Shown here: positions 2,941 to 62,490 of the stretch, piece by piece
Layout of the letters: each line of letters opens with the position of its first letter
How positions within the stretch are numbered: the stretch's first letter is position 1
Assembly: GCA_964600255.1 (NCBI GenBank)
Contig: CAZRIX010000001.1
Span: forward strand, 118,542 to 182,541
Origin: an uncultured Candidatus Saccharibacteria bacterium
GTDB taxonomy: Bacteria; Patescibacteriota; Minisyncoccia; Phycocordibacterales; PALSA-1337
DNA length: 64,000 nucleotides
Direction: 5' to 3'
Notes under the pieces: generated by a model
What the model was told of the DNA's origin: nothing
The model's database searches: none
What the model saw: only the letters and a program-made list of their open reading frames with translations
Translations under genes and position numbers: made by a program

Positions 2941-3026
2941 TCTTAATGATTCCGATTGTAAGCTTTTTCACATATTTTGCATTCCCCTGCCAATTCATAT
3001 ATAATTCGCGTACAAATTATTAATAA

Positions 3027-4334
<1,308 letters not shown>

Positions 4335-4352
4335 TTAATCATTTAGATATAG

Positions 4353-4485
4353 AAAAAGAGTGGTAGTGATATCCTAGGACATTTCGACGATTCAGCAGAA
4401 TCGCGCTTGGCGCACTGCGAGCTGAGAACTAGGAAATTCTTAGTAAAGAATTTCCGTGTCCGTAGATATCATTACCACTCTTTTT
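4353..4485. repeat. Structured element bounded by a 21-bp imperfect inverted repeat (AAAAAGAGTGGTAGTGATATC / GATATCATTACCACTCTTTTT) with three internal hairpins
   Basis: Read directly. The outer 21-nt arms pair with one mismatch. Inner hairpins are GGACA/TGTCC, CGATTC-AGCAG-GAATCG, GCGC-TTG-GCGC and GGAAATTCTT-AGTA-AAGAATTTCC. The element is GC-richer than its flanks and sits in the convergent eno/gpmA spacer. Confidence 0.5.
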
Positions 4486-4722
4486 CATTAACCTAACCCC
4501 CACCATTATGCTTGTGGAGCAGGTGGTACTGGAGGTGTTGGTGCCTTTGGTCCCTTTGTCATATAATATTTTCTCAGGTTGATTAGCTCCTGAGTCACCA
4601 AATTATACAATCGATTCAAGTGCCTCCACTTTTCCCTCATTACTTTGACATAGCGTCAAAAGCTTGGGTGAAAAGACTATGAAAAATGGCACTCCCTCGC
4701 CATGGTCTAATATTTAGCAAAA

Positions 4723-4741
4723 TTACACCACTTGGGTGTAA
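4723..4741 (-). terminator. Candidate hairpin terminator for gpmA (TTACACC-ACTTG-GGTGTAA)
   Basis: 7-bp stem and 5-nt loop just past the gpmA stop, flanked by A/T runs. Confidence 0.4.
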
Positions 4742-4767
4742 TTTTGGCTATATTTTATTATGTCTAA

Positions 4768-5487
4768 TTAAAGAGGCTGCTCGGTACCGTCACTTAGTAG
4801 ATAATATCTCTTAAGTGGCTTCAGATTCTCATCTAATTCGTAGATCAATGGCACAGCATTCTTGATCTCAATACCAACAATCTCATCATCGCTTATTCCA
4901 TCAATATGCTTCACCATAGCACGGATACTGTTGTTACTTGCTGAGATTATGACTTTCTTGCCACTCTTTATCATTGGAACGATATCTGAGTTCCAGTAAG
5001 GCATTACTCGCTTTATAGTATCTTCTAGTGATTCACCTAGTGGTAGATCATTTGGATCTAAGTCTTTGTACTTTGGATCAAAACCAGGATATCTAGGATC
5101 ATCCTTGGTTAGCTGCAATGGCTTGTCAGCAAAACTTCTTCTCCACTTGTGAACCTGTTCTGGAGAATATTGAGCAGCAATATCAGTATGTTTTTGTTCC
5201 TGAAGAGCACCATAGTGTCTTTCATTCAATCTCCAAGAATAGTTTGTTTGAATATCTGAAGACCCTAATTCACCAAGTACAGTACTTAATGTATTCTTTG
5301 CTCGTTTTAATACTGAACAAAAAGCCACATCGAATTTTAGTCCGGCATTCTTTAGACTTTGTCCGGCGAGCTTTGCTTCCTCAACACCTTTATCTGTTAA
5401 TTCAACGTCCGTCCAACCACAAAATTTCTTTTCTAAATTGTATGCAGTCTGTCCGTGTCTTATTATTACTAATTTATACATAGGCAC
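4768..5487 (-). CDS. gpmA: 2,3-bisphosphoglycerate-dependent phosphoglycerate mutase
   Basis: RHGQTAYN catalytic-His motif near the N-terminus, FCGWTDVELTDKG, and a 239-aa dPGM-like length. Confidence 0.88.
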   Translation of the reverse strand: MPMYKLVIIRHGQTAYNLEKKFCGWTDVELTDKGVEEAKLAGQSLKNAGLKFDVAFCSVLKRAKNTLSTVLGELGSSDIQTNYSWRLNERHYGALQEQKHTDIAAQYSPEQVHKWRRSFADKPLQLTKDDPRYPGFDPKYKDLDPNDLPLGESLEDTIKRVMPYWNSDIVPMIKSGKKVIISASNNSIRAMVKHIDGISDDEIVGIEIKNAVPLIYELDENLKPLKRYYLLSDGTEQPL

Positions 5488-36971: not shown

Positions 36972-38927
36972 TTACTCTACCCTAAGAACATCTCTGAGTA
37001 CATCTTCTGGTACCTCATTTTTTGTGTCACTTTTTATCTGTGTTTTTTCAGAATTCTTCAGATTTTCTATTGGTTTTGATACTACCTTTGGTTTGTCTGT
37101 GCTCATATTTGCATCACCATTTTTTGTTAATCCTGGGTTGGCAGCGAGGATTGCTGACAATGCACTCTTTAATTCATTTACGCGAGCTGGTGAAGCGTCC
37201 TTATGATTGTTATTTTTTGGAGTATTTGTAAGTGAGCTTAGCGATACGGACTTAAGCTTAGGTAGGTTCACATTATGATGAACAAAAGGTCTTTGATTAT
37301 TATTATGTCCATGATGATTCTTATCACCGTGATGATTTACGTGCTGTCCCACATGATGACCTGTGCCATGACTGTGATGTCCATTGTCGGCTACTTTAGG
37401 TGCCGTGGCTGTGTTTGTATGCATCTGAACAGGCTCTACGTGTATTGTAGGTTGTGGATTTGATATCGTGGGCTTAGCAGTATTTACAACGGTTGGCGCA
37501 GGTGTGACTGGTTTTGGTTCAGCCGCTTTGACATCAGTTGTCTTTGATTCTTTTGGCTTATCTTCTACCTTCACTGTTGCAGACTTAGGTGGTGCTTTGA
37601 CTGGTATTATAGGGGCCATCCAGTCATCGATAGCTTTCTCAACCTCAGCTCTCCTGTTTGAGAATTGTATTCTAGACTGTTCAATAACCTTCTCTTTACT
37701 TGAACTCTCTGGTTTTTCGATTGGTGGCAAGGTGGTAGCAGAAAAAGGTGCCGAGCTGATACCATCGATCATTAATTTTAAATATATTTGGAAAATACCC
37801 AAGTTCACAATATCTTCTGCAGTAAACTGCGGAGCAAATTCCTTCTCTAGAACTTCAGCATCAAAAGCTCCTACTCGAAAGACAATCATAGTACCAACGT
37901 TACCGAATACAGCAGCTCTAACCTCCTCTTCCATTTGCTCAATATACTGATGAGCCATTGTAAGGTTCAACTTGTACTTTCTTGCCTCAGATAGAATATC
38001 TGCAAAACTTTCATTGGCGAAAGATTGGAACTCGTCTACGAATAGATAGAAGTTTGGTAGAGTCTTGAGTACTCTATCTGGAACATCCGCACGTGAAAGT
38101 GCTGCTAGATAGATCTTTGTAATCAACATTCCCCCCAGAAGATTGGCATTTGATTCTCCTATTCTTCCCTTTGATAGGTTTATGATAAATACCTTACCAC
38201 TATCCATCATCTTTCTTATGTCAAAAGATGATTTTGGCTGACCGATCATATTACGTATCAGTGCATTTGCAGTAAACTGTCCGATCTTGTTCTGGATCGC
38301 TGGCACGGCTTCAGCGGCCATTCTTTCTGTATAGTTTGCAAACTCTTGTACCCAAAAAGCTTTTACTGATGAATCTGTGACATGAGAGATTACCTGCTTT
38401 CTGAACTCTTTATCAGACAACATTCGGTTTACACCGAGCAATGTAGCATCTGGATATTCTAGTAGTGCCAGAAGAGTGTTTGTAAGGATATATTCCATTC
38501 TTGCTGACCAAGCGTCTTGCCATATCTTTTTGAAGGTACTCATCAGACCTGATACGACTAGGTGTCTTTTATCAGCATCAACATTTTCCAAAACATTAAA
38601 TGAGATCGGATTGTCTATATCGAACGGAGCAAAATACACTACATCCTTTTGTCTATGTTCCGGTACATACTCTAATAGGAGCTCAGCTGTTTTGCCGTGA
38701 GGATCGATGAAAGCCATACCCTCACCATTCTTTATATCCTGCACAGCCATGTTCTCAAGTAAGGTAGACTTACCCATACCTGTCTTTCCTATCACGTAGA
38801 CATGCTTTGTACGATCCTTTGCTTTAATACCAAAGGTTACCCTCTTATTTCTGGCATCAGTTTGTCCAAAATATGTGATCCTTTCTTCATTCATAAATAT
38901 AGAACGTTTATGTATATATTCTAACAC
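36972..38927 (-). CDS. VirD4/TraG/TraD-like (DUF87-type) P-loop ATPase with disordered Pro/Ala/His-rich C-terminal tail
   Basis: Walker A GKTGMGKST and Walker B YLFVDEFQ. TMAHQYIEQM resembles the conserved coupling-protein motif. The last ~200 aa are low-complexity (KPKESK...HHSHGTGHHVGQHVNHHGDKNHHGHNNN). No N-terminal TM segment. Only 4 nt separate it from the downstream GT gene. Confidence 0.65.
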   Translation of the reverse strand: MLEYIHKRSIFMNEERITYFGQTDARNKRVTFGIKAKDRTKHVYVIGKTGMGKSTLLENMAVQDIKNGEGMAFIDPHGKTAELLLEYVPEHRQKDVVYFAPFDIDNPISFNVLENVDADKRHLVVSGLMSTFKKIWQDAWSARMEYILTNTLLALLEYPDATLLGVNRMLSDKEFRKQVISHVTDSSVKAFWVQEFANYTERMAAEAVPAIQNKIGQFTANALIRNMIGQPKSSFDIRKMMDSGKVFIINLSKGRIGESNANLLGGMLITKIYLAALSRADVPDRVLKTLPNFYLFVDEFQSFANESFADILSEARKYKLNLTMAHQYIEQMEEEVRAAVFGNVGTMIVFRVGAFDAEVLEKEFAPQFTAEDIVNLGIFQIYLKLMIDGISSAPFSATTLPPIEKPESSSKEKVIEQSRIQFSNRRAEVEKAIDDWMAPIIPVKAPPKSATVKVEDKPKESKTTDVKAAEPKPVTPAPTVVNTAKPTISNPQPTIHVEPVQMHTNTATAPKVADNGHHSHGTGHHVGQHVNHHGDKNHHGHNNNQRPFVHHNVNLPKLKSVSLSSLTNTPKNNNHKDASPARVNELKSALSAILAANPGLTKNGDANMSTDKPKVVSKPIENLKNSEKTQIKSDTKNEVPEDVLRDVLRVE

Positions 38928-38955
38928 ATATATAGAAATGTGTTATTATGAATTT

Positions 38956-39963
38956 ATGAAAATAGACATTAAAACATTGTACAAAAGGTTTGCTGATTTT
39001 ATGAGTCCTTATTCAGTTATTTTTATATTATTCTCAATTATCACCATATTCTTTATTATCACCGAGCCTTCTGCTGTTTTTTCCAATACAGCCACACTTT
39101 TTAGAGACAATACCCTCATTAGATTAGCTGCAAAAGAGCACTTTATCTGGGGTGGTCTACTAGGTTTTGGTATACTGGCTATCACATATATAGCTACAAA
39201 CATAAAAAGGCAGTATTCCCTAAAACATGTTTTCGGTAGAATCATATCTCTAGTCTTTTTCCTCCTATGGGGTGCGATGTTATCTGAAGTTTTGTTCGTC
39301 ACTCCTGTTTTGGACAATATCGTAAAGTGGTCAGATATTTTTATGAATGCAGACAAGCAGATATTCGGTGTATACCCAGCATTCTTTATGTACAAACATC
39401 ATAATGTAGTTTTGGAATACATAGTTGTTGAGTCATATGGATACCTTACTATTGTTATCGCTTTATGGACTCTTTTCCTCGTTGCAACACAAAGAATGGA
39501 CGAATTCCTGATTTGGTCAAAAAGGATACTTCTAGCTTTTGCTATCTCTATACCACTTTGGTTTGTTTTCCCTGCAACCCAACCATCTATAATGTATATT
39601 ACAAATCTGTTCAACAAACCTGTTGCCCCTGACATAGCAGAAGTTATCAAGGTAGGACCGCCTTCACTGTATATAAACAAGGCAGTAAATGAGTACACAA
39701 CAATGTGGCTCGATCCATACGGAAAAAGATTCTCAACGTCAAACTTTCCTAGCATGCACGTAATATGGGGATTCCTTCTTTTCCTAAGTGTGGCTAGAGT
39801 GTTTAAGTCAAAGATAACAAAAACACTGTTCTTTATATTTGCAGTTACAAATACAATTGGAACAGTGTATGTTTTACAGCACTATGCGGTGGATGCCTTT
39901 GCAGGAATTGCAGTAGTGGTGCTTGTTTGGGGAGTGACGAGCGAAAGAAAGGTGGGTGTTTAA
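38956..39963 (+). CDS. PAP2-superfamily membrane protein (lipid phosphatase / phosphotransferase-like)
   Basis: Polytopic. PSMH and HYAVDAFAGI motifs near the C-terminus resemble PAP2 motifs 2 and 3. Start 38956 (MKIDIK) or 38938 is chosen to avoid overlapping the divergent ATPase gene. Confidence 0.5.
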   Translation: MKIDIKTLYKRFADFMSPYSVIFILFSIITIFFIITEPSAVFSNTATLFRDNTLIRLAAKEHFIWGGLLGFGILAITYIATNIKRQYSLKHVFGRIISLVFFLLWGAMLSEVLFVTPVLDNIVKWSDIFMNADKQIFGVYPAFFMYKHHNVVLEYIVVESYGYLTIVIALWTLFLVATQRMDEFLIWSKRILLAFAISIPLWFVFPATQPSIMYITNLFNKPVAPDIAEVIKVGPPSLYINKAVNEYTTMWLDPYGKRFSTSNFPSMHVIWGFLLFLSVARVFKSKITKTLFFIFAVTNTIGTVYVLQHYAVDAFAGIAVVVLVWGVTSERKVGV

Positions 39964-39984
39964 ATAAACACGTTATTACAGAGT

Positions 39985-40494
39985 CTAGTTACAAGTAGTA
40001 TCAAGTATTAAACCTAGAGCGGCATTACCTGCGCCAGTTAAAGCATCGTAATCGTTACCTGCACTAGTTTTGCCTCGTGAGACACCTATACTATCAATAC
40101 ACCAAAATTTTCCTGTAGATTTCAAAGGAAATGCTATTGCATAAGCTAGACCATTTAAAGTAACATTACACTGACCATCAAGATTACCATTTACCTGCTT
40201 GATGTGATTCATAGCTTTCTGCAAATTAACATTTGCAAAGATAGTTCCAGCCGTAGTCAATGTTGAGCACTGATTACTATTTATTGATGAACCTGTTGTG
40301 TTGTAGACGCCTGACAAAGCAGCACGTTGCAATTCTGCACCTGTTCTAATTTCAACCATATCACGCCTGATTGCAGCATCTACACCCTTTACTCTTGAAG
40401 AGGCTAGTGATGCAAGCACAACAGATGACAACAAACCAATTATTGAAATAACAACGAGCAACTCAATCAATGTAAATCCTTTTTTTAATGACAT
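39985..40494 (-). CDS. Type IV pilin (prepilin N-terminal cleavage/methylation domain)
   Basis: MSLKKGFTLIELLVVISIIGLLSS class III signal (G|FTLIE). C-terminal Cys pair. Confidence 0.85.
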   Translation of the reverse strand: MSLKKGFTLIELLVVISIIGLLSSVVLASLASSRVKGVDAAIRRDMVEIRTGAELQRAALSGVYNTTGSSINSNQCSTLTTAGTIFANVNLQKAMNHIKQVNGNLDGQCNVTLNGLAYAIAFPLKSTGKFWCIDSIGVSRGKTSAGNDYDALTGAGNAALGLILDTTCN

Positions 40495-40540
40495 TTTTTT
40501 AGTATTAATATTCTATTACTCTTATATATTATCATATATA

Positions 40541-40570
40541 TTGCATCACACAAACAAAAAACCACCGTTA
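40541..40570 (-). terminator. Rho-independent terminator after major pilin gene
   Basis: ACCACC-GTTA-GGTGGT hairpin followed on the minus strand by a T-run (plus-strand AAAAAA at 40545-40550). Confidence 0.6.
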
Positions 40571-40601
40571 GGTGGTATTCTGTTTCTAAAATACTCTTAG
40601 A

Positions 40602-41090
40602 TTATCTTGAATCCATTAACGCACAAGTTGCATCACCAATCAATACGTTTGCTGGTGTTCCAATGTTTATCTTCTTAGCCTCTCCAATACTATCTACACA
40701 CCAGTAGTCTCCAGCAGCTCCTCCACTAAGTGACGCTGCTACTGCGTAACCTGCAAATGATGTTGCTGTTGTACCGCACTTCATAAGTGTACCTGTTGGC
40801 ATTGCAGCCTTTAGAGTAACGAAGTTTGCATTAGCAGCTAGTGAGCCAGCAACTGCGTTTGAACAATCAACGTTTGACTGTGCTGTTCCGTATGCAGATC
40901 CAGTATCTGAATATAATATTTCAGCCTGAGAACGAATTCCTCCCATCTGTGCTTGAACCTTTCCGTCATTTCCCTTACTTCTTGCTGTTGAAAGTGAAGC
41001 CAATACTACTGATGACAAAATACCAATGATTGCGATCACAACTAGCAACTCAATCAATGTGAAACCCTTTTGTAAATATGTTTTCTTCAT
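40602..41090 (-). CDS. Type IV pilin (likely major pilin)
   Basis: MKKTYLQKGFTLIELLVVIAIIGILSS prepilin leader. Its own terminator implies high expression. C-terminal Cys pair. Confidence 0.85.
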   Translation of the reverse strand: MKKTYLQKGFTLIELLVVIAIIGILSSVVLASLSTARSKGNDGKVQAQMGGIRSQAEILYSDTGSAYGTAQSNVDCSNAVAGSLAANANFVTLKAAMPTGTLMKCGTTATSFAGYAVAASLSGGAAGDYWCVDSIGEAKKINIGTPANVLIGDATCALMDSR

Positions 41091-41203
41091 AAACGAAAAT
41101 AATTAACCTATATAAACTTATTAATAATTAACTTATGGCACAATTATATCAAACGTATGATAAATAAGGGTAAATACTATGTGGATAACTTAGGAATAAC
41201 TCG

Positions 41204-42412
41204 TTATTGTGCACTTGCAACGTTGTATATAGGTATCAAAACAGATGCAAGCAAAGTCGCTACGCCTAGACCAAGCATAACGATCATGGCTGGTTCTATA
41301 AGATCAACTAGTGCATCAACTGCAGTTGTAACTTCTCTTGAGTAGAATCTAGCTAGAGTCTTTAGAATACTTCCCAACTCTCCTGACTCCTCACCCACCT
41401 TCATCATTTGAATCATAATTCCAGGAATCTCACCGTTACCTGACAGAGACTCAGATACCGTTTTACCAGCTTTTACAGAATCCACTGCGTCTGCAAGGAT
41501 CTTGTGATAAATACTACTATTAATAACTGACGATGTTAGTTCTAGAGCTCTAATCATAGGAATACCAGCGACAAGCATGGTGTTCATGTTATCTGATAGA
41601 CGTGCCCAGTATAGCTTCCTGTATAGATTACTTAGATATGGAATACTTAGTTTTATCTGATCAAATATAACAGCACCGCTCGGTGTCCTTATGTATTTCA
41701 TAATCACGAATCCAAGAACCACAGCGACAGCTAGCATTATGATTCCATATGACACAAAGAAGTTACTTATACCCAAAACTATTTTAGTATAAATAGGTAT
41801 ATCCTGTCCTGATTCAACTAGAATAGTACTGATCTTTGGAATAACCATCGTAAACATAAGGATCATCACGGTTATAAATGTGGCCATAACGAATGCTGGA
41901 TATATCAGAGCACTTTTAGCTTTTGATACTAGTTCATATGTACGATCCATATAATCCGCAAGGTAGCTGAAAGTTTCATTGAGTTTTCCTGACTCTTCAC
42001 CCGCCTTAACCATACTTACATAAAACTCCGAAAAGGCCTTTGGATGCTTTTCTAGTGCGATAGATATTGAACTACCCGCCTGAAGATCGTCAGCGATATT
42101 TAGTAGTATGTTTCCCAAAACTTTATTCTCACTTTCAGCACCAAGTAGTCTAAATACTCTAAGCGCAGAAACCTGCGCTTCAAAAAGCGTCGCAAGTTGT
42201 CTAGATAGAATCACAACATCTTTGTTCGAGACTCTATCAAAAAACGCTAGATTCATATTGAGTATACCTCCCTTCTTGTCTGCCTCAATTATGGACGTTA
42301 TAACCAAACCACGTCTTTGAAGTGAGGCAATGGCAATATCTACATTAGCTGCATCTATTGAGCCTGTTGTATTTGCACCTGTTTGATCTACTGATTGATA
42401 GTTAAAAAGCAT
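41204..42412 (-). CDS. pilC: Type IV pilus platform protein PilC (GspF family)
   Basis: 402 aa with two GspF repeats, three TM segments, and typical T2SF motifs (ALIYPAFV..., LSxxLxxG). Confidence 0.9.
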   Translation of the reverse strand: MLFNYQSVDQTGANTTGSIDAANVDIAIASLQRRGLVITSIIEADKKGGILNMNLAFFDRVSNKDVVILSRQLATLFEAQVSALRVFRLLGAESENKVLGNILLNIADDLQAGSSISIALEKHPKAFSEFYVSMVKAGEESGKLNETFSYLADYMDRTYELVSKAKSALIYPAFVMATFITVMILMFTMVIPKISTILVESGQDIPIYTKIVLGISNFFVSYGIIMLAVAVVLGFVIMKYIRTPSGAVIFDQIKLSIPYLSNLYRKLYWARLSDNMNTMLVAGIPMIRALELTSSVINSSIYHKILADAVDSVKAGKTVSESLSGNGEIPGIMIQMMKVGEESGELGSILKTLARFYSREVTTAVDALVDLIEPAMIVMLGLGVATLLASVLIPIYNVASAQ

Positions 42413-42419
42413 ATTTGTA

Positions 42420-43478
42420 TTATATCATTCGTTCAAGATTTTTTGGGTTTGTTGAATTCACATATGCATTCTCCACAGTAATCTCACCCCTTCTTACGAG
42501 TTCTGCCAATGATCTATTCATGTCGATCATACCCTCACCAGAACTAGTCTCTATGACTGTATTGATTTCATGAATTCTTTTCTCTCTAATCAAGTTTGCT
42601 ACAGCTGTATTGTTTATAAGCAGTTCATATGCAGGAATCAAACCTCCAGATATTCTAGGGATCAATCTCTGAGAGAATATTCCCGTCAAACTTCCTGCAA
42701 GCTGTACACGTATCTGATCCTGTTGGCCAGGTGGGAACGAGTCAATAATACGGTTGATGGTTTGAGCGGCATTGTTTGTATGCAAAGTTGAAAAAACTAG
42801 GTGACCAGTTTCAGCTGCAGTTACGGCTGTAGATATAGTGTCTATATCTCGCATCTCACCCACAAGGGCAACATCCATATCTTGTCTAAACATTGCAACA
42901 AGTGCATCTTTGAAATCTGGAGTATCGAGTCTTACCTCTCTCTGATCAATTATTGATTTCTTTGAATCATAGATATATTCAATCGGATCCTCAATAGTCA
43001 TAATGTGTTCACTTCTGGTTTGATTTATGATCTCAATGAGTGAGGCTAGTGTAGTACTTTTACCTTGGCCGATAGGTCCCACACAAAGGAAGAAGCCTTG
43101 TGGCTTACGAGTAAAAGATTCTAGAATCGGTGGCAGGTTGAGTTCAGCTAGTGTTCGGACTTGTTTAGGGATCAATCTTAGCGCGACAGAAATCATTCCC
43201 TGACGATAATATGCATTACCACGGAATCTAGCGTTAGTAAGGCTATATGAAAAATCCACATCTTTGTCTTTTTCAAACATCACCTTATTTGCATCAGACA
43301 AGAACTCATTGATGTAACCTTTCATCTGTGCGGCTGTGATGACAGATTTTTTAGCTAGAGGAATCAAACTGCCAGATACACGGATTAGAGGATTTCGTCC
43401 TTCAGAAAGATGCAGATCTGATGCACCTTCATTGATTACGTTTGATACTAATTCTTCAATTTCTTTTTTATAATCCAT
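42420..43478 (-). CDS. pilT: Type IV pilus retraction ATPase PilT
   Basis: Walker A GPIGQGKST, Asp box, His box and an AIRNLIRE-like motif (AVANLIREKRIHEI). 352 aa. Confidence 0.9.
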   Translation of the reverse strand: MDYKKEIEELVSNVINEGASDLHLSEGRNPLIRVSGSLIPLAKKSVITAAQMKGYINEFLSDANKVMFEKDKDVDFSYSLTNARFRGNAYYRQGMISVALRLIPKQVRTLAELNLPPILESFTRKPQGFFLCVGPIGQGKSTTLASLIEIINQTRSEHIMTIEDPIEYIYDSKKSIIDQREVRLDTPDFKDALVAMFRQDMDVALVGEMRDIDTISTAVTAAETGHLVFSTLHTNNAAQTINRIIDSFPPGQQDQIRVQLAGSLTGIFSQRLIPRISGGLIPAYELLINNTAVANLIREKRIHEINTVIETSSGEGMIDMNRSLAELVRRGEITVENAYVNSTNPKNLERMI

Positions 43479-43480
43479 AC

Positions 43481-43870
43481 TTATTGTTTTTTAACTCCTG
43501 AATAAATTTTTTGAACTTCACTCAAAACTTCTGAAGGAATTGTGGTTGCCTTAATGATATAACCATCTACATTCAACTTCTTTGCTTTTGCAATATCATC
43601 AGGTAGACCCTGATTTGTAAGCATTATTACAACTGTATCGGTAACAAGTTTTTCTTTTCTTAATATCGCAAGGAATTCCAAACCATCCATTCCTGGCATT
43701 ACGATATCTAGCAACAATATGTCTGGATTCAAACCATCTCGAATCACCTTCAATGCTTCTTCTGGAGCTTGTGCAGTATGAATAGTGTAATTATTCTTTG
43801 AAAACTTCAAAGAATACATATCTAACAAAAATTTATCATCATCTACAAAAAGTACAGTTAATGGTTTCAT
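43481..43870 (-). CDS. Single-domain CheY-like response regulator embedded in pilus operon
   Basis: DDD...LLLDIVMPGMDG...K receiver motifs. 129 aa. Confidence 0.85.
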   Translation of the reverse strand: MKPLTVLFVDDDKFLLDMYSLKFSKNNYTIHTAQAPEEALKVIRDGLNPDILLLDIVMPGMDGLEFLAILRKEKLVTDTVVIMLTNQGLPDDIAKAKKLNVDGYIIKATTIPSEVLSEVQKIYSGVKKQ

Positions 43871-43892
43871 GTATTTATTATATCATGACAAA

Positions 43893-45608
43893 TTAAAGCT
43901 TATTCACTTCTTCAAACGGAATCTGTCTATTAAATGCTTTCAACATGGCATCCTCCTTCATGGTCAACATACCCTTCTGTCTTAATAGTCTACTGATCTC
44001 GAGTTCAGTAGGACTCTTTAGAATCGCCGCCTCGATTTCTTTATCCATTTTAAATACTTCAAACACAGCCATACGTCCACGTGTGCCCTTTGGGTATTCT
44101 GGTGTTGGCTCAATACCATATACAGTATCTGCAAAAGGAATTTCCTTTTTGTACTGTTCAGGCAAGTCGGCAAACTGTTTATCAATAATCATCTTTATAC
44201 TTCCCTCTACTGGTATTGGTTTTCCAGCGCCTGGTGGGAATGTAGAAACAAGCCTCTGTGCAATAGCACAAATCAATGTAGGCGCGATCAAATACGGATC
44301 CACACCCATATCTATTAGACGAGGAATAACTCCAGCAGAATTGTTGGTGTGAAGTGTTGAGAACACGAGGTGACCAGTCAGAGCCGCTTGCACAGCAAGC
44401 TGGGCAGTTTCTTTATCTCGGATCTCACCCACCATGATAATATCTGGGTCCTGACGCAGTGTTGTACGTAGTCCGGCAGCAAAAGTATAACCAATCTCTG
44501 GTCTTACCTGTGACTGACTTACACCATCCATGTTGTATTCAATAGGATCTTCAAGAGAAAGAACGTTCATACCTTCTCGATCAACTTCATTTAGCATTGA
44601 GTATAGTGTTGTAGATTTTCCGGATCCTGTAGGACCAGTAATAAGGATCAGACCATAAGGTCTCTGGATTGCTTCTTTTAGAATATCCAAATTCCTTTTT
44701 GTCATACTCATTTCCTCGATCTTCTTTACGCCTTTTTCTTGATCTAGAATACGCATCACCACCTTCTCTCCATAGTACGCTGGAAATGTAGAAACACGGA
44801 AGTCGATCTTTCTACCATCTATACGTGCTGAGAAACGTCCGTCCTGCGGCTTTCTCTTTTCATCAAGCTTCATATTGCAAAGAACCTTAATACGCGCAAC
44901 AACAGCACTGTGAACTTGTGATGGTAGCACCAAACTTGTATTCAGGACTCCGTCCACACGGAATCTAACTCTAACTTTGTCACGCATATGCTCGACGTGC
45001 ACGTCAGATGCATTACCCTCAGTAGCATAGCGAACTATTGTAGCCACGATCTTTACCACAGGCGCATCTTCTATAATCACTGCATCCTTTTTACTTTCAG
45101 CTTGATCAGACTTGAGATCTAAAGTGCTTGCCTTGTCGATAGACAGAACTGATTCAAGTTCAGTTAGAGCTTTTGATACCTCTCCTCCAATACCTTTGTA
45201 TGATTCTATAACTTTCTGGAAGTCATCGGCAGAAATTAGAAAGACTTTGTATGGAATATTTTTCTTTGATGCAATAAAGTTTAGAGCGTCACGAGCTTCA
45301 ATATTGTCTGGATCTACGATACCTACCTCTAGAGCACCGTCGTTTAATGCAATTGGAACGAACTTGTAGTGAGCAGCGGACTCTTCAGGAATATAATCAA
45401 GAACGTCAAATGGTACAGATGTCTCTCCTAGATTTCTAGTTGGAATATTCAAAAATTCTCCTCTTGCAGCTAGAATATCTTCAGGGTGTACTCCCTTTTC
45501 TATCAAAGCTTGATCTAGAGTTTCGCCTTGAGATACTATCTTTTTTATCTCACTAGCATCATCTTTTGTTATAAGATTTTTATTTATTAAAATATCAATT
45601 ACACTCAT
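43893..45608 (-). CDS. pilB: Type IV pilus assembly ATPase PilB (GspE family)
   Basis: Walker A GPTGSGKST and GspE N-terminal and tetracysteine-less C-terminal domain. 571 aa. Confidence 0.9.
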   Translation of the reverse strand: MSVIDILINKNLITKDDASEIKKIVSQGETLDQALIEKGVHPEDILAARGEFLNIPTRNLGETSVPFDVLDYIPEESAAHYKFVPIALNDGALEVGIVDPDNIEARDALNFIASKKNIPYKVFLISADDFQKVIESYKGIGGEVSKALTELESVLSIDKASTLDLKSDQAESKKDAVIIEDAPVVKIVATIVRYATEGNASDVHVEHMRDKVRVRFRVDGVLNTSLVLPSQVHSAVVARIKVLCNMKLDEKRKPQDGRFSARIDGRKIDFRVSTFPAYYGEKVVMRILDQEKGVKKIEEMSMTKRNLDILKEAIQRPYGLILITGPTGSGKSTTLYSMLNEVDREGMNVLSLEDPIEYNMDGVSQSQVRPEIGYTFAAGLRTTLRQDPDIIMVGEIRDKETAQLAVQAALTGHLVFSTLHTNNSAGVIPRLIDMGVDPYLIAPTLICAIAQRLVSTFPPGAGKPIPVEGSIKMIIDKQFADLPEQYKKEIPFADTVYGIEPTPEYPKGTRGRMAVFEVFKMDKEIEAAILKSPTELEISRLLRQKGMLTMKEDAMLKAFNRQIPFEEVNKL

Positions 45609-45612
45609 ATCT

Positions 45613-45981
45613 TTATCTGATTACCCTAACTGACGCTGGCGGCAATACATAACCTCCAACTGGTGCGAATGGATTTGACCTACCGACGTTTTCCTCTGGA
45701 ACCGTGATCGTGTAGTCAACCAAAGAACTATATACTGCACTCTTAAATAAATCCGTTTTGATTCTAATATCATTTACTTGGTTCAATAGAGTAACTATTC
45801 TGTCTGAAACAACCCTAGCATCTGCTGATTCCGCTGAACCACCAACAATTGCGGTATCCAAAGATCCAGTTCCATCTACAGGTTCGCCTTGGTAGTAAAA
45901 ATATATTCCTAAAGACACTACGATTATAATCGCTAGTGCAATGAAAGTTACTTTATTTGGATTGTTTTGTTGTGTATTCAT
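45613..45981 (-). CDS. Hypothetical membrane-anchored protein in pilMNO-pilB interval (PilP-position analogue)
   Basis: N-terminal TM segment then a ~90-aa domain. No recognisable motif. The call is by position only. Confidence 0.35.
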   Translation of the reverse strand: MNTQQNNPNKVTFIALAIIIVVSLGIYFYYQGEPVDGTGSLDTAIVGGSAESADARVVSDRIVTLLNQVNDIRIKTDLFKSAVYSSLVDYTITVPEENVGRSNPFAPVGGYVLPPASVRVIR

Positions 45982-45982
45982 T

Positions 45983-46531
45983 TTATTGTTTTAGCCAAAA
46001 GGTCTTAAGTTCTAATGAATAATCATAAACGCCTGTATCACTGGCCTTAAGTGATACTTTTGATATTTCCAAAATACGTAGACTTGCTTCTAGATCTTTC
46101 AAAAAGGCTAGGAACGTGCGGTAATCTGCACTCACATCAAAGTTCAGTGTTACCGTGTTGTATCCTTGATTTGTCTGAGGTGCGCCTACTTCATTATTGG
46201 AAACATTGCTCGGAGTTGTTGTTTTAATATTCTTCACGGCAAGACCATGTCTAGAAGCAACACCGTTTATATCGATGATAAGTCTAACATTATCAACATT
46301 ATTAGGTATAATTTTCTCAAGTCTCTCCTGATCTTCAACGGGTATTTGGTTGTATACGGCCAGGATAGCGTCACGATCTATTACTAGACGCTCAGAATTT
46401 TCAAGAGCGTTCTTGTATTCATCATTTACAATTTTAATAGCCTTAATCTCGTCTATTTTTACTCTAGTAAAGGTAAAATAGGTTCCGATTGCTAGCACTA
46501 TTAGAATTAATCCAGTTGCATTTTTATTCAT
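45983..46531 (-). CDS. pilO: PilO-like pilus assembly protein
   Basis: Single N-terminal TM segment, coiled-coil, then an alpha/beta domain. Third gene of the pilM-N-O order. Confidence 0.5.
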   Translation of the reverse strand: MNKNATGLILIVLAIGTYFTFTRVKIDEIKAIKIVNDEYKNALENSERLVIDRDAILAVYNQIPVEDQERLEKIIPNNVDNVRLIIDINGVASRHGLAVKNIKTTTPSNVSNNEVGAPQTNQGYNTVTLNFDVSADYRTFLAFLKDLEASLRILEISKVSLKASDTGVYDYSLELKTFWLKQ

Positions 46532-46536
46532 AAATA

Positions 46537-47208
46537 TTATTGTGTATTTTCTTCAGGCACAACATCAGCACCGATTAGTATCTTCTCGTAATTTAGATCG
46601 CTTGGATTTATACTTGCAGTAAAACTGAATGCAACATTACCTGTTGTAGGGTCTAGCTGTAGATCTGTAAGGATCGGATTCTTTATTACCTTGTTTGTAC
46701 CAAACTTTGCTGACTTACCGAATACATCTGACTGCCATGCGATAGCACTGAAACTACTACCTATACCCTTCATAGATATCTTTGCACCTCCTGAACTATC
46801 GGTTGCATTTGGATCATTGGATTTTGAAGGTGGAGAAAATTCAAATGATGTAAATCTTATTCCATCGGCTGTAAGTAGACTTATGATGTTAAAAATTTCA
46901 GAAACAGCCAAATGGTTTTTGAGTAGTTCATTTGCAGTCTCTATTTTTACACTTGCATTCTTGAGCTTTTCTATTGTTGCAATATCAAAACGTGCTTCAG
47001 CCTTTTTCAAATCATTTGCGTATTGTGTTTGCTGCTTTGTTTGTACATCCTTCCATATTACTGAAAATACAGCACCTGCCATAGAGAAGATAAAAATAAG
47101 AACGGATACGAACATAAAGATACTAGTACTACCAGAATGATGTGTAACCTTTTGGTCCATCAATATTGGTTTCTTTGGGATGAACGATGTTTGGAACTTT
47201 GTATCCAT
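46537..47208 (-). CDS. pilN: PilN-like pilus assembly protein
   Basis: Short cytoplasmic N-terminus, one TM segment and a coiled-coil. Follows pilM with a 19-nt gap. Confidence 0.5.
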   Translation of the reverse strand: MDTKFQTSFIPKKPILMDQKVTHHSGSTSIFMFVSVLIFIFSMAGAVFSVIWKDVQTKQQTQYANDLKKAEARFDIATIEKLKNASVKIETANELLKNHLAVSEIFNIISLLTADGIRFTSFEFSPPSKSNDPNATDSSGGAKISMKGIGSSFSAIAWQSDVFGKSAKFGTNKVIKNPILTDLQLDPTTGNVAFSFTASINPSDLNYEKILIGADVVPEENTQ

Positions 47209-53748: not shown

Positions 53749-53792
53749 TGGCGGAAAGAGCGCACTTAAGCGACTTTGCTAAGTCGAGATTC
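53749..53792 (-). repeat. R1: tRNA 3'-end-derived direct repeat (minus strand GAATCTCGACTTAGCAAAGTCGCTTAAGTGCGCTCTTTCCGCCA)
   Basis: Near-identical to R3 at 55157-55200. The terminal GCTCTTTCCGCCA equals the acceptor 3' strand plus CCA of the tRNA at 55336-55425. Confidence 0.7.
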
Positions 53793-53845
53793 TATGTTTA
53801 CATATAAGAACGAGATGTGTAGTTTGGAGTAAACCAAAGACTATA

Positions 53846-54526
53846 TCAAATATTTCTGGTAGAGAAATACCTTTTAACTTTTCTAATACCCACGATTAGA
53901 CTGATGGAGAATACAATAAAGATTGTAAGGAAACTTTCATTGTCAGATGAATTGTCAATATCAAACACGAGAGGAACGATAAGTGCCAATCCCCCTACAA
54001 ATAGAGTAGCCCAGAATCTAACTCTCAAAGAAGAGAGGAAGACTTTCATAGGATGACCTCCCTCTATAACTTGAGCTACCTCATAACTTGATCTAAAAGC
54101 TGGAAACCAGGTAGTCCATACACGGTCACTTACGTGATAATCTTCGGAATGCTGGAGCATTACAATTTTACTTCGATATATTTTTGCTAAGTATATATTC
54201 ACAATACCTGAAAGACTCCAACCAATAAAGATTAGAAATAACGTCGATAAAAATACAGCGTAGCCACCTGTCCCAGATATAATTGCAATAATCATTACCA
54301 AACTTGCTCCTGGGAAAAAACTTCCTATGAAATAGAGTCCCTCGATAAATACAGAAAGAAAGGCAGCCAAGTAAATATACTTTTCATCAATGTTTGAAAG
54401 AAAATCTACCAATTCCCCCATACCTGGAATCTCTGAGTTGAGAAAAAGTAGTACACCATATACCGCAAGAGCTGCTGCTGAGATAATCCAAATTATTCCT
54501 GCATATAGTTGATTCTTATTCTCCAT
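53846..54526 (-). CDS. Hypothetical polytopic membrane protein (possible VTT/DedA-like)
   Basis: 226 aa, 5-6 TM segments. FIEGLYFIGSFFPG resembles a DedA re-entrant loop motif. Confidence 0.4.
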   Translation of the reverse strand: MENKNQLYAGIIWIISAAALAVYGVLLFLNSEIPGMGELVDFLSNIDEKYIYLAAFLSVFIEGLYFIGSFFPGASLVMIIAIISGTGGYAVFLSTLFLIFIGWSLSGIVNIYLAKIYRSKIVMLQHSEDYHVSDRVWTTWFPAFRSSYEVAQVIEGGHPMKVFLSSLRVRFWATLFVGGLALIVPLVFDIDNSSDNESFLTIFIVFSISLIVGIRKVKRYFSTRNI

Positions 54527-54564
54527 TGCATAATTTTAACCTAAATCTAATAATTAAGACACAT

Positions 54565-54630
54565 TGCTCGACTCAGCATGCTGTCGCGAAAAGAGCACAT
54601 GTTAGTGACTCGTATAATGAATCTCGATTT
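54565..54630 (-). repeat. R2: diverged copy of the tRNA 3'-end-derived repeat plus shared palindromic box (GCTCGACTCAGCATGCTG)
   Basis: Shares the CAGCATGCTGAGTCGAGCA box with R3. The tRNA-like tail is degenerated (GTGCTCTTTTCGCGACA). Confidence 0.55.
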
Positions 54631-54654
54631 AGGTAATAACCACTACTCTATAAC

Positions 54655-55092
54655 TCACAAACTAAATAAGTAAATTGAGGTTGTCAAAATAAAAAGTATC
54701 AGCCATGTGTACACATACAATCTGTGGTACTTTTTTATCTGATTGCAATATTCAGTAACAAGAGAATCAGTACGGGCATTATCATTCACACCAAGAAAAA
54801 GGCTTTTTTCCATTTTAGTCCACGAAAAAGCAGTTAGAGGATTAAATGAAACTACCTTTGAATTAATTCCGTCTTTGATTAGTGCTGGTGACCATATATT
54901 AAACTTGAAACTATTTGGATAAAGTTTATTTACTCTCCTTCTAAATTTTAGCAGATGCAAGTTAAGCTGTATTATACATATTAAACCAAAAATAAAAAGT
55001 AGAGTGTAGATACCACCCCCAACAATAATAGTGATTGAAAACAAATCTAAAGACTGTATAAATGTGAGTATACTAGTAATCATAGTTAACAT
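54655..55092 (-). CDS. Hypothetical small membrane protein
   Basis: 145 aa with two TM segments at the N-terminus and one at the C-terminus. No motifs. Confidence 0.4.
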   Translation of the reverse strand: MLTMITSILTFIQSLDLFSITIIVGGGIYTLLFIFGLICIIQLNLHLLKFRRRVNKLYPNSFKFNIWSPALIKDGINSKVVSFNPLTAFSWTKMEKSLFLGVNDNARTDSLVTEYCNQIKKYHRLYVYTWLILFILTTSIYLFSL

Positions 55093-55156
55093 AATACAAC
55101 AGATAGTAACCTGAGGCTATAGCATCTCATCGAGACATGCTCGACTCAGCATACTG

Positions 55157-55200
55157 TGGCGGAAAGAGCGCACGTAAGCGACTTTGCTAAGTCGAGATTC
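55157..55200 (-). repeat. R3: tRNA 3'-end-derived direct repeat, contiguous with GC-rich element B
   Basis: TGGCGGAAAGAGCG + 23-nt insert + GAGATTCG mirrors the tRNA 3' end TGGCGGAAAGAGCGAGATTCGAACTCGC at 55336. Confidence 0.7.
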
Positions 55201-55300
55201 GGTCATAGGTCTTCGCCTGCTGGCTCAGCCTACGACCCTGCCTCCTTCGCCTTCGCTCAGTCCGGCTTTCTCATCTCGTCTTTCTTTGCAGTCAGACGCT
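55195..55300 (-). ncRNA. GC-rich conserved element B (about 85 nt core), candidate structured RNA or recombination arm. Paralogue of element A at 62251-62347
   Basis: The minus-strand core GAGATGAGAAAGCCGGA...GAGGC.GGGTCG...GAGCCAGCAGGCGA.GAC...TGACCGAATC is conserved between the two loci. It is GC-rich in an AT-rich genome and lies immediately 3' of a tRNA and a short hairpin. Confidence 0.45.
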
Positions 55301-55335
55301 CTGTTCAGAAGCCATTCAGGCTTCTTCACAGATCG

Positions 55336-55425
55336 TGGCGGAAAGAGCGAGATTCGAACTCGCGGTTCCAATTAAGGAACGGCGGTTTAGTAAACCGCTG
55401 GTTTAAACCACTCACCCATCTTTCC
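55336..55425 (-). tRNA. Class II (long variable arm) tRNA, Ser-type identity (G73), anticodon loop UUACUAA = nominal anticodon ACU. CCA encoded
   Basis: Manual fold: acceptor GGAAAGA/TCTTTCC, 3-bp D-stem with GG in the loop, anticodon stem GCGGT/ACCGC, variable stem GTTCC/GGAAC, T-arm GCGAG-TTCGAAT-CTCGC, then G-CCA. Confidence 0.7.
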
Positions 55426-60978: not shown

Positions 60979-61044
60979 AGATATAAAAATATTAGCATAA
61001 AATAGGCTTTTAGGTACCCACTAACTTCTATACTGTTAAATCTT

Positions 61045-61092
61045 TGCGGAACCGGAGGGATTCGAGCCCTCGTGACCTTTAGAGGGGCTCCA
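61045..61092 (-). pseudogene. Partial tRNA-Ser(GCU) copy (3' ~45 nt: acceptor 3' strand, T-arm and part of variable arm), att-like direct repeat
   Basis: TGCGGAACCGGAGGGATTCGAGCCCTCG matches the 3' end of the tRNA at 62403-62490 (TGCGGAACCGGAGGGATTCGAACCCTCG). No 5' half is present. Confidence 0.6.
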
Positions 61093-61241
61093 GGTACTTT
61101 TATCGCTTTTTCGTGAGGCACTCGGATCAACTTTATTCTAGTAAGGCAGTAATTTCTTTTTTTGTCATAACTTCAACATCGTTAAACATGTGAAGTATAT
61201 CGCCACTAAGTCCATAATGTAATCTTGTTGAGTTTGTGACT

Positions 61242-61781
61242 TCAATTGCCTTTACAAATAAGTCTTGAATCATGTTGGGAGTTAGTCCTATTTTTTTCAT
61301 AAAAAAAATCTATATCTCTTAAAGTTTCAACTTCAGAATGCATTAGAATCTTATCACGAACATCCTTTAATTTATTTAGTGTGTCCTCAAATCCAGCAAA
61401 CTGAATATCTAATAAGTAGTAGATAGACAAAACATCAGGAAACCTACCATTTTGTTTTTCAAAAGTTTTCGCGAGTCCTGACATACAGCTCTTTAAAAAA
61501 GATGTTCTGGTTGTTAACCAGAAAGTTTTATTTTTAACATCCTCATTATTTCTAAATGATTCTGTTATAAAATACCAGTAGCTAAACTCTCTATATGAAC
61601 TTAGTAAGTTCCCAACAAAAATGTCAAAATCTTTATTTTCCTGTTTTCTCATTTGTAAGTACCTTAAAGACCAAACTAAAATAGTCATCCAAATCAAAGC
61701 GTCTTTCAGGAAATTGGTCATTGATAGACCTAATAAAATGCCAAAGGATAAAATCCTTTTCCCATTCAGATAACTTACCAT
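61242..61781 (-). CDS. Hypothetical protein (islet cargo), possibly the 3' part of a frameshifted gene
   Basis: Overlaps the upstream ORF by 149 nt in a different frame. Confidence 0.35.
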   Translation of the reverse strand: MVSYLNGKRILSFGILLGLSMTNFLKDALIWMTILVWSLRYLQMRKQENKDFDIFVGNLLSSYREFSYWYFITESFRNNEDVKNKTFWLTTRTSFLKSCMSGLAKTFEKQNGRFPDVLSIYYLLDIQFAGFEDTLNKLKDVRDKILMHSEVETLRDIDFFYEKNRTNSQHDSRLICKGN

Positions 61782-62187
61782 TATTAATCATTGAATCTAG
61801 TTTACTATCCCAATTACTTAGTTCTTTTGATATATCTTCCTTTACCCTTTGCATCTGTTCCCTTCTAATTAGGCCCTTCTCTGCCTTAATTTTGTCGTTC
61901 ATGATTTTATAGCGTCCCAAATAAATGCAATAGGCGAGATCATTCCGATTAGTAGAAGAATTGTGCTCTATATTTTCATTTACGCTCCGAGTTACAAAAT
62001 CTCTAATCTCCTCTTTCATTTCCTCTGACACCTTAAAATAAAGATTAGGGAAAAGTTGTCCAATTTTTTCCTCACTTTTCTCGGAAAGTTTTAATTCTAT
62101 TTCGTACTTTTTACCACTATTTAGTTTTACTAGTTGATACGCAATAAAAGCCAAAACTCCAATAATTATTATAAATGCCCAATTCAT
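61633..62187 (-). CDS. Hypothetical protein with N-terminal TM anchor (islet cargo)
   Basis: MNWAFIIIIGVLAFIAYQLV anchor then a Lys/Glu-rich soluble region. No motifs. Confidence 0.4.
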   Translation of the reverse strand: MNWAFIIIIGVLAFIAYQLVKLNSGKKYEIELKLSEKSEEKIGQLFPNLYFKVSEEMKEEIRDFVTRSVNENIEHNSSTNRNDLAYCIYLGRYKIMNDKIKAEKGLIRREQMQRVKEDISKELSNWDSKLDSMINNGKLSEWEKDFILWHFIRSINDQFPERRFDLDDYFSLVFKVLTNEKTGK

Positions 62188-62250
62188 ACTTTAATTATAA
62201 CCTGAACTTGGTAATTCATGTACTCGGGTCGCTTTTATGTCGTCCTACTT

Positions 62251-62347
62251 TGCGGAAACGGAGGGATTCGGTCACGAGTCCTCGCCTGCTGGCTCGGCTC
62301 TCGACCCCGCCTCGGACACCTTCGTGTCCTCCGGCTTTCTCATCTCC
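62251..62347 (-). ncRNA. GC-rich conserved element A with tRNA-Ser 3'-end mimic tail (paralogue of element B)
   Basis: The minus strand reads GGAGATGAGAAAGCCGGAGGACACGAAGGTGTCCGAGGCGGGGTCGAGAGCCGAGCCAGCAGGCGAGGACTCGTGACCGAATCCCTCCGTTTCCGCA. It is separated from the tRNA by the hairpin GTTGACC-TCG-GTCAAC. Confidence 0.45.
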
Positions 62348-62402
62348 ACACTTCCACAATATGCTCGATTCAGTTGACCGAGGTCAACTTCATCGATCAT
62401 TG

Positions 62403-62490
62403 CGGAACCGGAGGGATTCGAACCCTCGAGGCCTTTAAAGGGCCTGCCTCTTTAGCAAAGAGGTATGTTAGACCACTCCACCACGGTTCC
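62403..62490 (-). tRNA. tRNA-Ser (anticodon GCU), class II
   Basis: Manual fold: acceptor GGAACCG/CGGTTCC, anticodon arm CCTCT-TTGCTAA-AGAGG, long variable arm GGCC-CTTTAAA-GGCC, T-arm GAGGG-TTCGAAT-CCCTC, discriminator G. CCA not encoded. Confidence 0.85.

Follow-up and report, generated by a model that had tools for sequence, protein, structure and literature searches.

The Rickettsia palindromic elements (RPEs) are non-coding palindromes of ~100–150 nt that are found in a reduced genome both between genes and in frame within genes, where they are tolerated as a surface peptide. Other short repeats of related build are the miniature inverted-repeat transposable elements (MITEs) lying in terminators, the Correia elements of Neisseria, the pneumococcal BOX elements, and the repetitive extragenic palindromes (REPs) together with bacterial interspersed mosaic elements (BIMEs) and REPINs, which are mobilized by RAYT, an HUH enzyme of the Y1 type. 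Bacteria of the candidate phyla radiation (CPR, Patescibacteria) combine very small genomes with what is thought to be a scarcity of repeats and mobile DNA. A literature search returned no report of MITE, REP or palindromic elements in CPR, nor of AGCA tetraloops. Here we describe a multi-hairpin element of 133 nt in the 433-nt spacer (4335–4767) between the convergent genes eno and gpmA in a 64,000-nt stretch of DNA from an uncultured Candidatus Saccharibacteria bacterium (contig CAZRIX010000001.1, positions 118,542–182,541; hereafter the window). The spacer is probably made up of a bidirectional terminator enlarged by a palindromic insert, an independent conserved block and the terminator hairpin of gpmA.

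By description, RPEs appear to be the closest analogue of this element in behaviour, and in behaviour only, as membership in RPE-1 to RPE-8 is not claimed and a relationship in sequence is not expected. The likeness concerns coding sequences: the wedge domain of recG carries a palindrome-encoded insert of ~40–50 aa in the window, and an 8-codon module reads DSAES both in recG and in a gene for an ATP-grasp protein. These two members lie in frame in protein genes, while the eno copy does not. In contrast to RPEs, the host is a CPR/Patescibacteria, the local copy number is far lower, and the smallest moving unit would be of ~24 nt, defined by an AGCA loop. Structurally, the element resembles the modular intergenic repeats BOX, Correia and REP/REPIN. 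Features in common with MITEs in terminators, Correia and BOX are its small size, the lack of coding sequence, the terminal inverted repeats, a long hairpin between convergent genes, variation among strains in presence and orientation, and a modular build with internal modules gained or lost; unlike them, it has no demonstrable target-site duplication, no cognate transposase in the window and a single full copy in 64 kb. With REP/BIME/REPIN it shares imperfect palindromes of 20–40 nt clustered after genes or terminators, conserved unpaired bases and covarying stems, but neither a GTAG motif nor a RAYT was found in the window. The hairpin size fits REPs, while the copy number (five AGCA-loop hairpins in 64 kb) is not that of a high-copy extragenic repeat, and some copies lie inside open reading frames (ORFs), which is unusual for REPs. 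Finally, the A-run, stem and T-run at a convergent junction are those of a bidirectional Rho-independent terminator, simple versions of which occupy the same slot in relatives, but the stem-loop is 133 nt long with three internal hairpins instead of ~30–35 nt.

Results

Structure of the 133-nt element

The 21-nt outer arms of the element (Table 1) are complementary except for one mismatch, which is a G·U pair on the plus strand. This arm-pair pattern was found once in the window, against a chance expectation of 0.02 matches, and the inverted repeat extends to 30 nt with 87% complementarity (4352–4381/4457–4486). RNA folding of the 4345–4495 segment gave −67.0 kcal/mol (z = −10.05) on the plus strand and −63.4 kcal/mol (z = −9.93) on the minus strand, and none of 200 shuffled sequences folded as stably. 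The 21-bp stem enclosing three local hairpins, proposed earlier from the letters alone (the sequence-only reading), is thus real, as are two further hairpins noticed in the remainder of the spacer, TTGAC-N5-GTCAA and a 12-bp stem next to gpmA. The same reading described the remaining ~280 nt as richer in GC than the flanks; for the spacer (0.38–0.47), this is true against the neighbouring true intergenic DNA (0.26–0.28) but not against the flanking coding sequence, whose level it equals. It also pointed to Rfam as a check, where no credible family was found: the 4200–4900 region yielded only SNORD61 (18 bits vs. a gathering cutoff of 43) and SurA (11.7 vs. 100) at E ≤ 10, both noise, and the whole window only two tRNAs.

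The A5 run at 4353–4357, the GAGTGGTAGTGATATC/GATATCATTACCACTC stem and the T5 run at 4481–4485 have the sequence features of a bidirectional intrinsic terminator. A simple terminator scanner misses the element because it requires a loop of 3–8 nt and counts at most 20 pairs. The element contains no ORF and, like a MITE, is short and non-coding with terminal inverted repeats, which extend into the 21–30-nt arms. A long near-perfect stem of this kind could be a substrate of RNase III.

Table 1. Position of the features in the window (strand as given by the analysis)
Feature	Position	Strand	Remarks
Multi-hairpin element, 133 nt	4353–4485	none	Inverted repeat, fold, plain hairpins at the same position in relatives
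Left outer arm AAAAAGAGTGGTAGTGATATC	4353–4373		A5 run and stem; matches the left half of the simple L121 hairpin
Right outer arm GATATCATTACCACTCTTTTT	4465–4485		Stem and T5 run
Inserted core	4374–4464		Terminal inverted repeat CTAGGACA/TGTCCGTAG; absent in L121, reversed in L134
H1–H2 module, CGATTC-AGCA-GAATCG then GCGCTTGGCGC	4386–4413	+	Nested, ~25–28 nt; missing from the L134 version
Hairpin H1, CGATTC-AGCA-GAATCG	4388–4403
Hairpin H2, GCGC-TTG-GCGC	4403–4413
Hairpin H3, GGAAATTCTT-AGTA-AAGAATTTCC	4432–4455	+	Loop AGCA in L134
18-codon mini-ORF MTKGPKAPTPPVPPAPQA*	4506–4562	−	Candidate, coding unproven; from the second ATG
Invariant 20-mer CTCAGGTTGATTAGCTCCTG, stem-loop CTCAGG/CCTGAG	4573–4594		Identical in 6/6 sequences
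Invariant ATTATA (TATAAT on the minus strand)	4602–4607	−	Possible −10 box
Hypervariable patch	4620–4632		Within the otherwise conserved block
Invariant palindrome TTGAC-N5-GTCAA	4645–4659		Candidate hairpin or protein-binding site
Conserved TGGTCTAAT	4703–4711	+	Resembles an extended −10 box
12-bp hairpin CAAAATTACACC/GGTGTAATTTTG	4718–4746		Terminator-like; immediately past the gpmA stop codon
Palindromic element in frame in the recG wedge domain	62892–63044	+	H1 hairpin 62940–62955, AGCA-loop hairpin 62977–62994
tRNA-Ser 3′-end copy with 24-nt AGCA-loop insertion	55157–55200	−	Stem variant CGACTT/AAGTCG
Second tRNA-Ser 3′-end copy with 24-nt hairpin insertion	53749–53792
eno (enolase), upstream convergent gene	3048–4334	+	ORF call; NCBIfam TIGR01060, 670.7 bits
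gpmA (2,3-bisphosphoglycerate-dependent phosphoglycerate mutase)	4768–5487	−	NF010713, 317.7 bits (cutoff 305); Pfam His_Phos_1

The same slot in relatives

The eno loci of relatives, referred to by their L numbers, were retrieved via exact-protein look-ups. In L121 (eno 97% identical), which has the same gene layout, the slot holds only a 34-nt A5-stem-T5 hairpin, AAAAAGAGTGGTAGTAATACTAACCACTCTTTTT. The arms of this hairpin match the outer arms of the window element, and when the two loci are aligned, L121 is gapped over 99 columns at the position of the window core. L134 (eno ~100% identical) carries a version of ~110 nt, whose core aligned to that of the window with a score of 74 in reverse complement and 29 in forward orientation. 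This version is devoid of the ~27-nt segment 4386–4413, and its outer arms differ from those of the window by matched changes on both arms. The eno–gpmA spacer of L139/L140 (eno 96%) is 47 nt long and consists of one simple hairpin (AAAAAACCACTCagtatcGAGTGGTTTTTT in L139), and in L141, L142, and L122 a stem with A and T runs, different in each, directly follows eno. In all relatives, the slot is thus occupied by a bidirectional terminator-type hairpin, the sequence of which turns over fast. A swapped-arm likeness between the L139 stem (CCACTC…GAGTGG) and the window stem (GAGTGG…CCACTC) was discarded, as 6–7 nt is too little.

The insert varies in presence, orientation and module composition, and related modules occur at unrelated loci. 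The site is filled in the window, filled in the opposite orientation in L134, and empty in L121, a pattern of the kind seen with MITEs. The 133-nt element is less conserved than any other part of the spacer, which speaks against its being a dedicated RNA gene or a cis-regulator of glycolysis.

AGCA-loop hairpins at unrelated loci

A 26-nt part of the insert's core recurs at 62937–62962 (local alignment score 44; shuffles 21.7 ± 4.0). The 23-nt core is likewise present at 62940–62962 and, as a metagenome scan revealed, in 10 CPR-like contigs in unrelated contexts, namely alongside tRNA genes or between them, past terminators and within ORFs. One of them, L131, shows the order GGACAC..H1..H2..GAGAACTAG..hairpin (unrelated sequence)..CGTGTCC within a different long outer stem, and shares the GAGAACTAG junction with the window element (4424–4432); by its sequence, the L131 element is a probable full homologue of the latter.

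AGCA is the capping loop of the hairpins in these elements. It was found in 5 of the 40 perfect hairpins of the window, defined as stems of at least 6 bp with a 4-nt loop, compared with 3 of 383 in unrelated control loci totalling 879 kb. The five in the window are all located in these palindromic elements. Across the family, stems show covariation while the loop is fixed (CGATTC/GAATCG, CGACTT/AAGTCG, CGAATC/GATTCG, CGATTT/AAATCG). A covariance model of the H1–H2 module detected four copies in the window and three extra ones in L127, clustered after a terminator; the eno loci of the relatives gave no match. A search for further copies, which the sequence-only reading had proposed as a way to recognize a MITE, gave a divided answer: the full element is present once in 64 kb, while the H1 module has four copies in the window. 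In the L127 cluster (2950–3110), three or four AGCA-loop hairpins, whose stems covary, lie in tandem between convergent genes just past the terminator; a TGTCTCGGACCGA-like box comes after each of them, an arrangement that recalls REP/BIME clusters.

Other scans added no members. A scan of genome contigs with a 16-base arm pattern, which is too short, gave 120 single chance matches in unrelated phyla and none with both arms. Viral contigs contained no match to the H1 core or to the 20-mer of the conserved block described below, and the eight matches to the tRNA-linked motif in them were all chance hits in coding sequence. Rfam detected only tRNAs in the metagenome contigs L125–L133.

Discrete ~24-nt insertions

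The recG insert (~40–50 aa) lies in the wedge (OB-fold) domain, is bounded by the outer inverted repeat GAAGGTTCGTGAGAAGAACATC/GATGTTGCTTCTAACGAACCTTC and folds at −70 kcal/mol (z = −4.6). It is present in some CPR orthologues, which are of ~760–770 aa, and absent from the 725-aa forms. Compared with L143 (1540–1745), which comes from the same sample as L134, recG of the window and of L124 (1621–1841) contains 24 extra bases encoding eight codons, DGDSAESA. These bases are the CGATTCAGCAGAATCG hairpin, nested in the older palindromic insert. The same 24-nt hairpin module makes up an 8-residue insertion, LAKHDSAE, in a CPR ATP-grasp protein (L126, 194–1621, minus strand; motif at 1217–1239). 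LAKHDSAE was found in 2 of 18 ATP-grasp homologues (the close relatives P0241 and P0242) in an otherwise well-conserved stretch, and 16 were without it. The motif is on the opposite strand in this gene, yet DSAES is encoded as in recG. At eno, 25–28 nt of the window element are missing from L134, and two tRNA-Ser 3′-end copies of the window also contain a 24-nt insertion (Table 1).

At both tRNA-Ser loci (53749–55425 and 61040–62490, minus strand), each tRNA-Ser is followed by a conserved GC-rich element of ~100 nt (GAGATGAGAAAGCCGGA…GGGTCG…GTGACC) that abuts a tRNA 3′-end copy; then come hypothetical ORFs over 1.2–1.4 kb and another copy. One island ORF has a weak HEPN_AbiU2 match, and the ORF island beside recG is missing from L143 (360–1230). 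The loci resemble small integrated islands that lack an integrase, and L125, L127, and L130 contain comparable elements in which tRNA ends are duplicated. The anticodon of the tRNA-Ser at 55336–55425 (minus strand) is ACT according to ARAGORN (A34), which is unusual for a bacterial tRNA-Ser; that of the other is GCT.

A conserved block between the element and gpmA

The sequence-only reading had treated the remaining ~280 nt of the spacer together with the 133-nt element. Comparison of the relatives' spacers, also suggested there, separated the two: the 133-nt element is poorly conserved, while ~4500–4715 forms a distinct conserved block of ~215 nt. Its divergence from the window was 4.9% in L134, 9.7% in L121 and ~30% in L122/L142/L141, and that of the 4-fold degenerate eno sites in the same comparisons was 10%, 23% and 45–50%, so the block diverges about half as fast. 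The block is present in L134, L121, L122/L123, L141, and L142, and absent from L135–L138 and L139/L140. It was found in three contexts, eno–hairpin–block–gpmA(−), eno–hairpin–block–iPGM(+) and eno–163-aa ORF(−)–hairpin–block–iPGM(+), where iPGM is the cofactor-independent phosphoglycerate mutase, and it is missing where eno directly adjoins iPGM (74 nt) or gpmA (47 nt). The GC-rich 163-aa ORF between eno and the block (L122, 11302–11793, minus strand) occurs only in this relative and has no Pfam family; it may be another insertion or not a real gene. Phosphoglycerate mutase itself shows non-orthologous displacement at this one locus among close relatives (eno 93–100% identical): the cofactor-dependent gpmA, convergent with eno, is present in the window (4768–5487), L134, L121, and L139, and iPGM, co-directional with eno, in L122 (12152–13672), L135–L138 (L135, 5361–6875), L141 (5616–7163), and L142.

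Conservation of the block starts at the stop codon of the candidate mini-ORF. The start and stop codons of this ORF are kept in all six sequences carrying the block, and its indels, of 3 and 6 nt, are in frame. Conserved TGGTCTAAT pairs with a downstream ATTA(G/C)ACCA in the relatives, with one compensatory change in L141. AAAATTACACC can pair upstream with TGGTCTAAT, in a helix that is perfect in the iPGM-type relatives, or downstream within the 12-bp hairpin at gpmA, so its sequence suggests the possibility of alternative structures. A 44-aa ORF (4506–4640, minus strand) was rejected as a conserved protein: the substitutions against L121 are spread 3/4/3 over the codon positions, with seven nonsynonymous and two synonymous changes, and the invariant 20-mer is in another reading frame in L122.

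On the plus strand of the block, RNAalifold predicted long-range helices with changes compatible with wobble pairing, in which 97.6% of the cells pair and four pairs show compensatory changes, in a structure derived from the same six sequences (two clades) that were used to test it. Folds of single sequences were no better than those of shuffles on either strand (z = −0.5 to −1.3). For the block, a candidate small RNA or micro-ORF unit, an RNA reading survives, if with these modest fold scores, and a plus-strand structured RNA across it is a possibility. Judged from its sequence, the block would most likely be a small minus-strand transcription unit specifying an RNA or a micropeptide.

Gene neighbourhood

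The closest homologues of eno are Patescibacteria/CPR enolases (best 120 matches, where named), and the genome was judged to be Paceibacteria-like. Farther along the window, a large glycosyltransferase/methyltransferase cluster (~9.9–36.9 kb) precedes genes for a TraG/VirD4-like coupling ATPase and for type IV pili (PilM, PilO, PilB, PilC, and two pilin-like proteins; 36972–47208, minus strand), which is ordinary gene content for CPR.

Discussion

According to the reading we consider likely, the 4353–4485 region would act as a Rho-independent terminator common to eno on the plus strand and to a small convergent unit on the minus strand. A non-coding palindrome of ~90–100 nt, ending in CTAGGACA/TGTCCGTAG, would sit in the loop of this terminator and lengthen its stem-loop. 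Termination is expected to persist on both strands, since neither the stem base nor the adjoining A/T runs are disrupted. The insert would be a member of a modular family of small AGCA-loop hairpins scattered through CPR/Patescibacteria genomes, and a module of ~24 nt (CGATTC-AGCA-GAATCG plus GCTTGG) may have entered the eno copy recently, and recG in the same lineage. Such an insert would be selfish or neutral and not regulatory. The minus-strand unit would comprise a TATAAT −10 box, a stem-loop at its 5′ end and a Pro/Ala-rich ORF of 18 codons, and would end in the big hairpin, an arrangement that fits the geometry of the block, and the 12-bp hairpin at 4718–4746 would be the terminator of gpmA itself. 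We infer that the family is mobile and moved by some enzyme.

Several observations weigh against this interpretation. No second full copy of the element was found in the 64 kb of the window or in ~110 kb of the relatives' flanks, and the similarity of the L131 element beyond the searched 23-mer is modest (26 vs. 16.4 ± 3.2 for shuffles, maximum 29). No clean target-site duplication is visible: GATATC/ATATC occurs on both sides of the insert, but several substitutions separate the empty site of L121, and GATATC, being itself a palindrome, merges with the inverted repeat and is indistinguishable from it. For the 55 ORFs of at least 100 aa in the 64 kb, Pfam gave no match to a transposase, integrase or HUH enzyme, nor was there one to Y1_Tnp (RAYT) or to a recombinase/invertase among the window ORFs. 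The concerted changes on both outer arms between the window and L134 are not predicted by a simple model of host stem plus insert. Both termination at 4353–4485 and the minus-strand unit are deduced from motifs, and a consensus scan for two-hexamer, sigma-70-type promoters found none in the block of the window or of L141, and favoured a site outside the block in L142. A strict diagnosis as a MITE is incomplete with regard to target-site duplication, local copy number and a parent transposase. Nevertheless, of the three explanations offered by the sequence-only reading, a MITE-like insertion into a terminator is the best supported, given the plain hairpin in L121, the inversion in L134 and the recurring modules.

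The most serious alternative, though an unlikely one, is that the palindrome grew in place without any mobile element, by slippage or template switching, by gene conversion with similar GC-rich hairpins, and by recombination between the arms that flipped the centre. The concerted arm changes, the lack of a clean target-site duplication and of a transposase in the window, and the single local copy of the full element all speak for it, and the short homology GAC…CGAGC flanking the 24-nt module at both eno and recG could support gene conversion. However, the identical 16-nt hairpin followed by GCTTGG is found in contigs of 40–52% GC from different lineages in unrelated contexts, and repeated de novo origin of an identical sequence is not expected. 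Growth in place also has to contend with the 8-codon insertion in the ATP-grasp gene that 16 other homologues lack, and with the order of core modules common to L131 and the window element.

It is less probable still that the element is an inverton, in which the 21–30-bp repeats serve as recombination sites and flipping of the ~90-nt centre changes the expression of eno or of the small unit. Long inverted repeats are indeed present, and the centre has opposite orientations in two strains whose flanks are ~95–100% identical. Nevertheless, the consensus scan detected no promoter-like site in the segment, no invertase or recombinase was recognized among the 55 ORFs, and the whole segment is absent in L121; the ~27-nt indel and the arm changes between the two versions mean that they are not two states of one switch.

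The least probable explanation, to which we give very little credence, is that the 133-nt element is a functional structured RNA (the small non-coding RNA or the cis-regulatory RNA of glycolytic genes considered in the sequence-only reading, here eno and gpmA, or a 3′-untranslated-region element controlling them), since its extremely stable fold, its multi-branch architecture recurring with the same module order in L131 and its stems covarying under an invariant AGCA loop are outweighed by its low conservation, its absence in the relatives with 97% and 96% identical eno and the same genes, its inversion in the ~100% identical one, the presence of the same modules in frame within coding sequence in either orientation, and an Rfam result of mere noise.

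Returning to the terminator with a palindromic insert, a wider hypothesis can be put forward tentatively, namely that CPR genomes harbour an undescribed family of very small mobile hairpins, of which the eno–gpmA element is one copy. The unit of this family may be a ~24-nt hairpin with a covarying stem under an invariant AGCA loop, of the consensus CGAYYY-AGCA-RRRTCG plus NGCTTGG, that builds modular palindromes of 100–150 nt. Its targets may be terminator loops, tRNA 3′-end copies and in-frame sites in essential genes (recG, ATP-grasp), and it may have been active recently, two modules having been gained after this lineage separated from the L134/L143 strain. The family of AGCA-loop hairpin elements has apparently not been described so far.

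The proposed composition of the spacer would explain its oversize for a convergent gene pair without a new regulatory RNA, as the sum of a terminator, a selfish insert and a small conserved unit. The ~215-nt block, which is found beside either type of phosphoglycerate mutase, is a candidate gene for a small RNA or a micropeptide. If the wider hypothesis is true, a family of 24–150-nt hairpins reshaping terminators, tRNA-linked islands and protein loops would be the CPR counterpart of the Rickettsia RPEs, and would be of use both for studying the plasticity of genomes in uncultivated lineages and as a source of strain-level markers for them.

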